Positions 38,085 to 41,989 of a stretch of 64,000 bases of DNA are shown one piece after another. The notes beneath the pieces were generated by a model that was not told the origin of the DNA, did not search any database, and was given only the letters and a program-made list of their open reading frames with translations. Positions within the stretch are counted from its first letter, which is position 1. Every line of letters starts with the position of its first letter. Position numbers and translations under genes: made by a program. This DNA comes from a virus (Duplodnaviria; Caudoviricetes): IMG/VR virus record IMGVR_UViG_3300042870_001240; one strand, 5' to 3'.

Positions 38085-39188
38085 ATGAAAAAGTTTAGAG
38101 TACGAATGACTAATGTTTCGACAAGATTAGTTGATGGTGAAACACAAAAATGGCTGACATGTGAGGTGTCACTATCTTCCCTAATAGAAGCAAAAAGAAA
38201 ACTAGGGAAAGAATTATTTTCCGTAAATGTTAGAGGATGTTTATCTAACAGTAAACCAACAAGTCAAGAAAGGAAAAAACCTGTATTCAGAGGTATAATG
38301 AATACAATGGACAAGATAAGAAAAAACCCTGAAAAAGCTTATCTGCAAACTATGGGAAATAATGGTTGTACGATAATGTGTGGTTCTATTGAAAGAATAT
38401 CTGGTGATATCTATGAAATCACATTAACCCATGATTACCATGGAATTGGTAACGGTCAACAAACGATTTATATAACCGAGTGGATTGATACAAATTATCC
38501 AATAAGTAGTGATGTAACCATACTATGTAAAATGGCCATTGGACTTTCAGAGGATGACTGTAACGACATATGTAAGGCAAATAACACAAGTAACAAAATC
38601 GATAAGAAAGATATCAAATCCATAGAGTGGAAAAGAATAAGTATGGAACTTAAAACATTGGGTATAACTTTCAATTATAAAAAAGAAAAAGAAGGTCAAT
38701 ACCATATCGACATCTGTGCTGAAAATTACTATAATATGATTGGGGCATATTTCACAAACAAACCTTGGGTAAACGGCCAAGAAGTGGTCGATAAAATTAA
38801 ACCTAACATCATATCAGGAAAAGAGATGATTGAAATGGATAGGGTAAAGAAAATAATTGATGATTGGTTTGAAACCAATGATAATGAGGTTAAAAAACAT
38901 AGTAATAAAATGGATACTACAAGAATGGGTTATTTAAAGAACATTATGATTTCATTATACACGGATGTTAAGATACAAGCAAGAGTAAAACCATTTATAA
39001 AAAAATACGGAGATGTTAAATTTTTTGAACTAATCTTTAAAGTTGTTATAAACACCATAGAAGAAAACGAAACAACTAAAGTATCGTCAAATTATTTTAA
39101 TAAAAAAACATACGAATTATTAAGTAAATCTATTGAAGTAGAAATTTTAGAATCAGAAATTTTAAAATCAGAAACGGTCTTAGTTTAA
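38085..39188 (+). CDS. AIPR-like (ParB/Srx-fold) protein
   Basis: LFSVNVRG, NNGCTI, IGNGQQT, NNTSNKI..KD motifs in AIPR order. Confidence 0.7.
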   Translation: MKKFRVRMTNVSTRLVDGETQKWLTCEVSLSSLIEAKRKLGKELFSVNVRGCLSNSKPTSQERKKPVFRGIMNTMDKIRKNPEKAYLQTMGNNGCTIMCGSIERISGDIYEITLTHDYHGIGNGQQTIYITEWIDTNYPISSDVTILCKMAIGLSEDDCNDICKANNTSNKIDKKDIKSIEWKRISMELKTLGITFNYKKEKEGQYHIDICAENYYNMIGAYFTNKPWVNGQEVVDKIKPNIISGKEMIEMDRVKKIIDDWFETNDNEVKKHSNKMDTTRMGYLKNIMISLYTDVKIQARVKPFIKKYGDVKFFELIFKVVINTIEENETTKVSSNYFNKKTYELLSKSIEVEILESEILKSETVLV

Positions 39189-39391
39189 TTGTAATAAATT
39201 TCCCCCTAACTAATATAGGGGAATTTTTCCAGAAATTTTATTTTACATATAGAGAACATTTTAAAACAAGGGGTCGTGTTTCTATATACATGGGGGAATT
39301 TTTCCAAAAATTTCTATAAACATTTTTTCATACAAATATTTCATTTAAGGGATTATCCCCCCTTTTGACACCCCAAAAACCACTATATGGA

Positions 39392-39416
39392 GGGGGGATA
39401 CGGGGGAGGGAGGGGG
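39392..39416 (+). other. G-quadruplex-forming motif
   Basis: GGGGGG-ATAC-GGGGG-A-GGG-A-GGGGG. Confidence 0.7.
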
Positions 39417-39603
39417 TACCTACCCCATATAGGGGGGTATAGAGGGGACCTCCCCCCATAAACGAGACGGGACACTATAGGGTCCTCCCCTGTCTGTAAT
39501 CTAATGTATGTGGGTGATGTAATTTTGATGACATATACAAGTAATGTTATTAACATGACATAATGACATTGTTAATAAGATTTGTTAATGGGGGAATAAT
39601 ATA

Positions 39604-39635
39604 TTTGTGTATGTTGGGGATTGTATGTATCTTTG
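39604..39635 (+). promoter_or_regulatory. Bacteroidota sigma70-type promoter
   Basis: TTTG (39604-39607)-N20-TATCTTTG (39628-39635). Confidence 0.75.
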
Positions 39636-39640
39636 TATTG

Positions 39641-39775
39641 TCAGTGGTTAAGTCCGAGACGGGTTCGACAAGGGGGTTGTCGCAGAGGGTGTACTCCAAC
39701 CTGCTTATATGTTTACTTAAAACCAAACCATAAGGCAGGCTGGAGTATACTCGGTCCCCATCTTCTGAATGGTCA
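39641..39775. ncRNA. Candidate structured RNA between convergent promoters
   Basis: CGACAA-GGGGG-TTGTCG (39666-39682) and a ~21-bp stem pairing 39687-39708 with 39730-39752. Confidence 0.55.
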
Positions 39776-39780
39776 CAACA

Positions 39781-39812
39781 CAAAGATACAAAAAAGATTT
39801 GATAGATACAAA
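39781..39812 (-). promoter_or_regulatory. Bacteroidota sigma70-type promoter facing the 39604 promoter
   Basis: On the minus strand, TTTG (39812-39809)-N20-TATCTTTG (39788-39781). Confidence 0.75.
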
Positions 39813-39847
39813 TTGTTTATTTAGAATATTATCCCTATCTTCGTATA

Positions 39848-40285
39848 ATGTTTATACAACTTATATCACATATAGAGAATCGGATTAAGTATAACAACTA
39901 CTCATCCGTGATTAATTTAACCAACAAGGAACGTAGGGACCTTGCCAAGTTCTGTCTTGAATATTGTATTGAAGTTATCGGTCAACCTAAGAAGAAAGGA
40001 ATCCCCAAGTTCAATATCGTTAAGACCAAGAAACCTTATTATGGGGAATATGTTAGCGAACATGAAAAGATATGCGTATTTTATAATCAATGTAAAACCA
40101 TTGGCACCTTCATCAGCACATTCATTCATGAATATACCCACCATACCCAAAACCTTAATAAGTATGATAAGGTATTATCCAAAGTTGGGTATGATAATCA
40201 CCCCAAAGAGATTGAAGCAAACAACATGGCAAAGTTATATAAACAACCATGCCTTGAAGCATTCCGTAAATCAATCCAATATTAA
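39848..40285 (+). CDS. HExxH metallopeptidase-like protein
   Basis: FIHEYTHHTQ...HPKEIEAN. Confidence 0.7.
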   Translation: MFIQLISHIENRIKYNNYSSVINLTNKERRDLAKFCLEYCIEVIGQPKKKGIPKFNIVKTKKPYYGEYVSEHEKICVFYNQCKTIGTFISTFIHEYTHHTQNLNKYDKVLSKVGYDNHPKEIEANNMAKLYKQPCLEAFRKSIQY

Positions 40286-40593
40286 ATTATCCCCCTAACA
40301 TGTTCCCGTATCACCTGTAACGAATGTTCCCTAATATACATCTGTAAATCATTATGGTCATCACTAGATAATGGATACTCCTTATGGATATACTCTATCA
40401 CATCCCCCATGTCAGTCTCCGTTAATAACAATACAGATTGGGGTTGAAGTCTACTCATCCCACTTTTTCCAACATACTTACACGTCCCCTCAAATAAACC
40501 ATGACCATATGTCACAATATAACACCCATCACTCTCCGTGATGACCGTTGAAAACTTTTTTAGTACACTTTCGTACATCTCTTTTCTACCCAT
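40282..40593 (-). CDS. Hypothetical protein
   Basis: ORF track. Confidence 0.6.
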   Translation of the reverse strand: MGRKEMYESVLKKFSTVITESDGCYIVTYGHGLFEGTCKYVGKSGMSRLQPQSVLLLTETDMGDVIEYIHKEYPLSSDDHNDLQMYIREHSLQVIREHVRGII

Positions 40594-41452: not shown

Positions 41453-41989
41453 ATGGTTAGTGGTAGATTAAAGGATTTGATATTTAAGAAACTGTATAAA
41501 GATTTATCTCATGTAGAAATTATTGAGTATAAGGGTGAGATATGGTTTATTGATAGAAAGGAAAAGTTTTGGTATTTTATATATACTAAGTCTAATGGTC
41601 AGATGTGGTGGAGATATTCTTTCTTTACTCCTTTCTTTCTTCTTTTCTCTTTACCCTCTGATGAATTTACTCACATTCTTTCTTCTTGGGTGGAAGAGGT
41701 CTTAAATTGTAAGGTGACCACAACACTCAAGGTGGCTAATGTTAGGGAAGTTATGGTGGAAGAGGTCTTAAATTGTAAGGTGACTGAAACAGAAACCGTT
41801 ATTAATGGCTACCCCCTATCGGTGGAAGAGGTCCTAAATTGTAGGGTGACTACAACAATGGTGTCTATTGCTTCTTTACCAAAATCGGTGGAAGATGTCC
41901 TAAATTGTAGGGTGACTACAACAATGATAGACAGAGGTATTCCACGTCATGAGGTGGAAGAGGTTTTAAATAATAATATAAATAAATAA
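41453..41989 (+). CDS. Repeat-array protein B
   Basis: Same N-terminal domain as protein A; TATCTTTG promoter at 41440-41447. Confidence 0.85.
   Translation: MVSGRLKDLIFKKLYKDLSHVEIIEYKGEIWFIDRKEKFWYFIYTKSNGQMWWRYSFFTPFFLLFSLPSDEFTHILSSWVEEVLNCKVTTTLKVANVREVMVEEVLNCKVTETETVINGYPLSVEEVLNCRVTTTMVSIASLPKSVEDVLNCRVTTTMIDRGIPRHEVEEVLNNNINK
41689..41974 (+). repeat. In-frame array B: 36-nt repeats with 30-nt spacers
   Basis: Repeats start at 41689, 41755, 41821, 41887 and 41953 (partial); period 66. Confidence 0.95.

Follow-up and report, generated by a model that had tools for sequence, protein, structure and literature searches.

The window, by which we mean the whole stretch of 64,000 nucleotides analysed here, contains a 660-bp gene-free gap in which two putative small RNA genes face each other on opposite strands, hereafter B1 (plus strand) and B2 (minus strand). 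The gap is flanked upstream by an AIPR (Abi-like) gene (38085-39188), which is followed by a terminator-like two-way hairpin (39201-39223), and downstream by a gene for a 145-aa protein (39848-40285) with an HExxH motif (HEYTH), convergent with a gene for a 103-aa protein (40282-40593); no Pfam family was found for the 145-aa or the 103-aa gene. The wider neighbourhood includes anti-restriction, Abi-like and CRISPR-type array genes, with array-bearing genes on both sides of the RNA locus at 35.6 kb and 41.7 kb. The G+C content is about 31% for the window and about 31-34% for the surroundings of the RNA core, and that of the core itself (39638-39704) is 57%. The DnaK encoded in the window is 75% identical to DnaK of Flavobacteriales MAGs, and the stretch, present in 22 lake-water DNA runs, recurred among the sources searched only in IMG/VR and lake-type metagenome contigs; both the DnaK likeness and the lake-type recurrence agree with a phage of Bacteroidota. 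Phage GenBank records gave no DNA match to the RNA locus or the surrounding 20 kb.

The B1 promoter (39604-39635, plus strand) is of the Bacteroidota type (-33/-7) and consists of TTTG (39604-39607), a 20-nt spacer and TATCTTTG (39628-39635), and the B2 promoter (39781-39812, minus strand) consists likewise of TTTG (39812-39809), a 20-nt spacer and TATCTTTG (39788-39781). The facing TTTG-N20-TATCTTTG promoters reported in the preliminary description of this locus are thus present as described, and its remark that no credible ORF follows the start sites agrees with our finding that no ORF begins inside either predicted transcript. Back to back with the B2 promoter lies a third element, TTG-N20-TATCTTCG (39813-39843, plus strand), the probable promoter of the 145-aa gene. 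Since the ATG of this gene (39848) is located only 4 nt past the -7 box, its mRNA may well be leaderless. In close relatives that lack B2, the corresponding position ahead of the homologue of the 145-aa gene is taken by a consensus TTTG...TATCTTTG box. This promoter is outside the RNA genes and marks their boundary.

The B1 RNA core extends from 39640 to 39704 on the plus strand (about 65 nt plus terminator). In the consensus fold, positions 39640-39647 pair with 39654-39660 to form the 5′ hairpin P1, which is followed by the conserved joiner GGGUU (39661-39665), by the hairpin P2 of variable length, in the window 6 bp (39666-39671 paired with 39677-39682), and by the 3′ module (39685-39704), in which GAG-GGUGUA-CUC, a GAG-loop-CUC element, leads into a C-rich tail that is usually, as here, CAACCUGC. 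The AT-rich stretch at 39705-39734, common to both convergent genes, is predicted to fold into a hairpin and is probably a two-way terminator. In most B1 copies such a hairpin stands immediately 3′ of the gene and is followed by the next promoter; at loci without B2, a hairpin of the CUUUAUA...UAUAAAG type comes directly after the B1 tail. There is no clear U-run after the central hairpin in the window, so that termination here is putative.

For a collection of relatives, we started from the 145-aa protein, which led to a viral contig (L081), the upstream DNA of which was compared with 39281-39694 of the window and found to be 80% identical, though the 145-aa protein itself is only 66% identical. 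Exact words from the conserved parts gave 8 viral loci with the B1 core, and a gapped pattern gave 56 metagenome loci, making up 64 related loci with 41 distinct copies of B1 with flanks. For much of the core, the invariance among these copies is partly forced, because the relatives were gathered by a pattern built from those letters. A covariance model built for B1 (R1) scored 86.7 bits at B1 of the window and found exactly one B1 per locus, and it detected neither B2 nor the third RNA described below (B3).

The consensus fold of B1 includes three hairpins. In the alignment used (A3), the proposed partners are paired in 95.6% of cells, compared with 37-44% when the partners are slid by 1-3 columns, and the covariation score is 0.196, compared with 0.065 in shuffles, a value reached by none of the 500 shuffles. 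Two-sided changes were found at four pairs in all, three in P2, with up to six pair types, and one in P1, where G-C alternates with A-U and, in another alignment, also with C-G; compensatory base changes thus back two of the three hairpins. Neither P3 nor a proposed pseudoknot shows two-sided changes. This pseudoknot, between GGUU (39662-39665) and AACC (39698-39701), is paired in 85% of cases, with A-to-G changes that keep U-G pairs, and it is a possible element of the B1 fold. P1 contains two invariant U-G pairs, and because these would be A-C mismatches on the opposite strand, the fold is specific to the plus strand. Core lengths among relatives range between 33 and 41 nt, in steps that are not multiples of three, owing to the P2 loop, and a reading frame is therefore ruled out. 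Single-sequence folds of the consensus RNAs were no better than those of shuffles. With a conserved promoter, compensatory pairs and the lack of a conserved reading frame, B1 carries the general marks of a structured non-coding RNA gene, and the conservation of structure among relatives bears out the earlier proposal that structured non-coding RNA genes with promoters lie here. Within the 3′ module of four copies (L129, L143, L178 and L183), belonging to two otherwise distinct B1 lineages, we also noted a 28-nt insert that forms a 6-bp hairpin and has a direct ACTCC repeat on either side; it is missing in the close relatives L162, L180 and L114.

Matches to a loose form of the promoter motif number 11 in the window; the expectation is 5.3 ± 2.2, and a count of 11 was attained by one shuffle in 100. 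As the loose motif is not rare, the case for the promoters rests on conservation: of the 41 distinct B1 copies, 37 keep TTTG-N18-22-TAnnTTTG at the same distance. In the other four, from a separate phage lineage, the same RNA stands behind another conserved box, so that conservation attaches to the RNA itself and not to its promoter. The B2 promoter is retained in most B2 relatives; the exceptions are L155 and L181, where the -33 element reads TTAG instead of TTTG, and L185 and L200, with a degenerate -7 box. The alternative box, GTGATTTTTAAGATT...GTTGATAGAG, was observed before B1 in L139, L147, L149, L168 and L174 (also L170 and L190) and recurs elsewhere in the same contigs, and it may be a phage-specific promoter. 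In several copies behind this box, a conserved insert of about 20 nt is followed by another tail unit, and one 46-kb contig carries two copies of B1.

B2 (39735-39775, minus strand) is a shorter unit, composed of a short hairpin, CCAUU...GAUGG (about 39754-39770), in which the changes among relatives are compatible with wobble pairing, and the same 3′ module as B1, here GAGUAUACUCCAGCCUGC (39752-39735); the consensus end of B2 is GAGUAKACUCC plus the tail. Units of B2 were found beyond the window in L134, L136, L155, L164, L181 and L185 and in the viral contigs L200, L201, L203 and L204. At two further loci (L133 and L137), the position of B1, after a conserved G-rich module and before the 103-aa gene, is taken by a promoter and a different RNA, B3, which ends in GGUGGAAGAGUAGACUCC, a tail and an AT hairpin. 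The word GGUGGAAGAGUAGACUCC is present in 16 jumbo-phage contigs (these two plus 14 others), and the 5′ hairpin of B3 shows compensatory changes (UCGG/CCGA, UUGG/CCAA and CCGG/CCGG). The complete 318-kb genome of one such phage (G001) has one B3 and no B1. In an alignment of the three RNAs (A4), on which their kinship rests, B3 matches B1 over the whole core and B2 matches the 3′ half of both, and all three share a 3′ module, GAG(GG)UAGACUCC plus a short C-rich tail. After a scan of all collected loci for this module, only B1, B2, B3 and two diverged B1 copies were recovered. Because B3 stands at the B1 position and aligns with the whole B1 core, B1 and B3 are taken to be alternative occupants of one locus and B2 an extra, shortened member, the three forming, as judged from this alignment, one phage RNA superfamily.

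The array in the window (41689-41971) has a 36-nt repeat of the Cas13b type, and the B3 module, GGUGGAAGAG-UA-GACUCCAAC, matches the first 10 plus the last 9 letters of this repeat at 18 of 19 positions, while the central 17 nt of the repeat are missing from it. On this ground the 3′ module could be a shrunken Cas13b-type repeat, with the RNAs mimicking repeat or crRNA and thereby occupying or redirecting a host Cas13 effector. The setting is consistent with such mimicry, since the locus is between array-bearing genes and at least 10 loci have homologues of the array genes at a distance of 2-4 kb from B1; moreover, RNA anti-CRISPRs (Racrs) and viral crRNA-like RNAs are documented (PMC10651486; bioRxiv 10.1101/2024.10.29.618823). 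Against it, the likeness to the window repeat is not significant for B1, for which a 13-nt local match is reached by 300 of 2000 shuffles, or for B2, which scores no better than shuffles, and the score of B3 is reached by 15 of 2000 shuffles before correction for multiple tests. Furthermore, the B3 module of the complete 318-kb phage does not track the array repeat of the same phage, which differs from it, the alignment of B1 with B3 places part of the repeat-like word in the 3′ arm of P2, and no tracr-like (anti-repeat) duplex with the repeat could be formed in either orientation. The resemblance is suggestive but not robust, and we consider the mimicry rather unlikely. A related proposal, to which we give a slightly lower probability, is a modular system in which a constant 3′ handle, derived from or co-evolved with the Cas13b-type repeat, is combined with the interchangeable 5′ domains of B1, B2 and B3 and would load the RNAs onto the partner of the cas-less arrays, for example the host Cas13. 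If this were true, the RNAs could block host Cas13 or provide it with non-guide cargo, and a new phage route to use or disarm RNA-guided immunity would be at hand. As to the arrays themselves, the 318-kb phage (loci L219-L234) has at about 130027-130459 an array with a period of 66 nt and a 36-nt repeat, GGTGGAGGAAC...GTAACATCAAC, on the reverse strand, which is homologous to the window repeat, and the L136 contig has a five-unit array whose repeat is one to three letters off that of the window.

The arrangement of B1 and B2 had been interpreted in the preliminary description as a sense/antisense pair, and a regulatory pair or transcription-interference switch resembling ColE1 RNA I/RNA II or a type I antitoxin would indeed account for convergent promoters with start sites only about 135 bp apart. 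The central hairpin without a U-run makes read-through and mutual interference physically plausible, and the convergent layout is found in 8 of the 41 distinct B1 copies, across phages that are 10-25% different in these sequences. In the other 33 copies, however, B1 stands without B2, and these include the closest relatives (L153, L165, L175 and L188, with 96-97% identity in B1); in five loci B1 alone is inverted. The 6-bp hairpin and the stem of about 21 bp are both located where they had been placed before, and the long stem has its origin in the gene layout: its 16-nt arms (39689-39704 and 39735-39750, extending inward) correspond to the 16-nt word that ends both genes, GTGTACTCCAACCTGC on the plus and GTATACTCCAGCCTGC on the minus strand, the sole two matches in the 64 kb. 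Since both genes end in this one module and stand tail to tail round the AT-rich hairpin, a 21-bp stem results. In L134 and L136, where the tails differ, the arms pair over only about 9 bp, and the exact long-stem pattern gave no match in IMG/VR. The long stem is accordingly a by-product of the gene layout and not a conserved RNA helix. The two transcripts are complementary in the 16-nt terminal module and the shared hairpin only, the two genes being relatives rather than complements of each other, and the stretch contains no toxin ORF. We thus see little likelihood in an antisense pair, and regard B1 and B2 as related but separate convergent genes that meet only at their 3′ ends.

Two further conserved non-coding modules are situated next to the RNA genes. 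The G-rich module (39290-39500), in which GGGGG/CCCCC runs lie within nested hairpins, exceeds all other non-coding parts of the region in conservation: several relatives with 66-80% identity in their proteins retain 92-97% identity here. A 24-nt word of the module is exact in five jumbo-phage contigs, its word depth in one lake metagenome is about 240 versus about 21 for the flanks, and two of its words, CGAGACGGG and GAGGGGACCUCC, resemble words found in B1. The module is usually located upstream of B1, and in L140, L141 and L191 it is inverted and downstream. The spacer module (39500-39600), 77-87% conserved in many relatives, has repeated ATGACAT/TGTTAATAA words and a near-palindrome (39543-39589) that could be candidate protein-binding sites.

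The usual gene order, found in about 30 of the 64 loci and down to 37% protein identity, is the G-rich module, B1, the 145-aa gene and, on the other strand, the 103-aa gene. B1 alone is inverted in L140, L141, L157, L179 and L191, with the surrounding modules and genes keeping their order; in L136 the 145-aa gene is upstream of B1; and in L134 and L148 separate tRNA genes stand between the G-rich module and B1. A homologue of the AIPR gene was found in none of the 64 related loci, and in the window this gene looks like a recent accessory insertion. From these inversions, the displaced 145-aa gene, the interleaved tRNA genes and the absence of AIPR from the relatives, B1 can be considered an autonomous cassette, neither the leader of the next gene nor a partner of AIPR.

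The stretch might instead act as DNA, as part of a replication origin, as a recombination or packaging site, or as a two-way terminator or insulator between gene blocks. The 660-bp gene-free gap adjoins the G-rich module and a second gene-free stretch lies about 0.9 kb away, homology among relatives often stops right after GACUCC, and the 28-nt insert between ACTCC repeats in two lineages would also fit such a role. On the other side, the hairpins stay paired through U-G pairs that are A-C mismatches on the other strand, nearly every copy is preceded by a promoter at a fixed distance, the unit is inverted in some phages without being lost, and a plain terminator needs no 65 conserved nucleotides upstream, so that a role as DNA appears highly improbable to us. 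We give the lowest probability to a riboswitch-like or attenuator 5′ leader of the downstream HExxH gene. In about half of the loci, the homologue of that gene does lie at about +330 nt from B1 and in the same orientation, but the two are separated by a hairpin and a further promoter, B2 and its promoter intervene in the window, and the gene orders, with B1 facing away from the gene in five loci and the gene upstream of B1 in L136, already largely refute such a leader.

The search for known RNA families, which the preliminary description had suggested as a check, gave no match: Rfam 15 at gathering thresholds had no hit over the whole window, and below threshold the best E-values for 39200-39950 were 0.27-10, for unrelated eukaryotic and viral families. 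The B3 locus likewise had no Rfam match, ARAGORN predicted no tRNA or tmRNA gene in the window, and a search of 401 sampled Bacteroidia genomes and three Flavobacteriales MAGs did not recover the B1 core pattern. A limited literature search found no description of this RNA family. The family is absent from Rfam and adds a new kind to the phage small RNAs, unusually modular in its make-up. Several other likenesses were considered and dropped, as neither 23S rRNA near the I-CreI site, SRP RNA helix 8 and the tmRNA 5′ end nor the tRNA T and D loops and an HDV-like fold gave a model match, and as the word UUCGA is missing from B3. The functions put forward earlier, namely a replication primer with antisense control, a decoy for sensors or an RNA antitoxin, also lack support, there being no tandem repeats and no conserved toxin gene adjoining; for a ToxI-like type III system in particular, 39200-39900 contains no tandem repeats and AIPR is missing from the related loci as stated above.

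Two freshwater-sediment RNA-library runs contained contigs of an L081-type relative, and one RNA-library contig of 378 nt reached from the equivalent of 39362, in the G-rich module, to just past the B1 hairpin; such contigs, which represent the sequence of a relative in small shares, carry neither strand nor ends and may derive from DNA carry-over, are a hint of transcription of the region in that relative and say nothing about the habitat or expression level of the phage of the window. A search for targets of the C-rich tail showed no enrichment of complementary sites: apart from self matches, 9-mers at chance level were all that the window and the complete 318-kb relative contained; a 10-nt match of the tail to the acceptor strand of a phage tRNA-Arg was within chance expectation and was discarded.

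The two convergent genes, each with its own promoter and structure, independent of their neighbours and restricted together with their kin to lake jumbo-phage contigs, are best explained, in a reading that we hold with some reserve to be the probable one, as small structured non-coding RNAs of one phage superfamily that would act in trans through their 3′ module. Each gene would be read from its own host-type (Bacteroidota) promoter and end at the common AT-rich hairpin. B1, B2 and B3 most likely act in trans, with a protein or RNA partner that would recognise the common 3′ module, the exchangeable 5′ domains making the difference between them; the invariant joiners and the 3′ module would then be the recognition core, and the hairpin tips and whole 5′ domains could vary freely. 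Because the neighbours are anti-restriction, Abi-like and CRISPR-type array genes, a role in host takeover or counter-defence is probable.

The family has clear boundaries, given by the promoter, three helices, the common 3′ module and the terminator, and natural variants of it are available by the dozen, two sister forms can take its place at the same locus, and its position next to a conserved gene pair and CRISPR-type arrays is fixed. RNA sequencing, structure probing and pull-downs would therefore have a well-defined object here, on which one could also ask whether the RNAs of jumbo phages are assembled from an invariant handle and interchangeable domains. Should the handle prove to be repeat-derived, B1, B2 and B3 would be linked to Cas13 biology. 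To our knowledge, phage-encoded small RNAs are few and mostly unexplained.

Among the closest known systems are Racrs, solitary repeat units in phage genomes (Camara-Wilpert et al. 2023, PMC10651486), and viral crRNA-like RNAs (bioRxiv 10.1101/2024.10.29.618823). B1, B2 and B3 are like these in being small phage RNAs with their own promoter and predicted terminator in counter-defence surroundings, standing alone without spacers on a mobile element, and the B3 module resembles both ends of the CRISPR repeat. Unlike Racrs, which are near-copies of a whole repeat, none of the three is a close copy of a CRISPR repeat, at most the repeat ends being recognisable and the middle missing, with a likeness that is not significant for B1 and B2, and a conserved structured domain of 40-50 nt precedes the module. 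The sRNAs of Bacteroidota chromosomes (e.g. FopS, RF04319) are similar in promoter type (TAnnTTTG), in size and in forming paralogous families; unlike them, the locus has no model match and its core pattern was not found in the 401 sampled Bacteroidia genomes. In ColE1 RNA I/RNA II and other cis-antisense pairs, the two RNAs always co-occur and can pair throughout their functional length. B1 and B2 share with these the convergent promoters a short distance apart and the hairpin-rich transcripts, but they are related genes that meet at their 3′ ends only, one of them usually standing alone. The tRNA region of phage T4 yields the stable small RNAs species 1 and 2 (rnaC/rnaD), processed from a tRNA precursor. 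Here, too, small structured RNA genes of a phage are found among tRNA genes, but B1 and B2 have individual host-type promoters in place of processing from a tRNA precursor.
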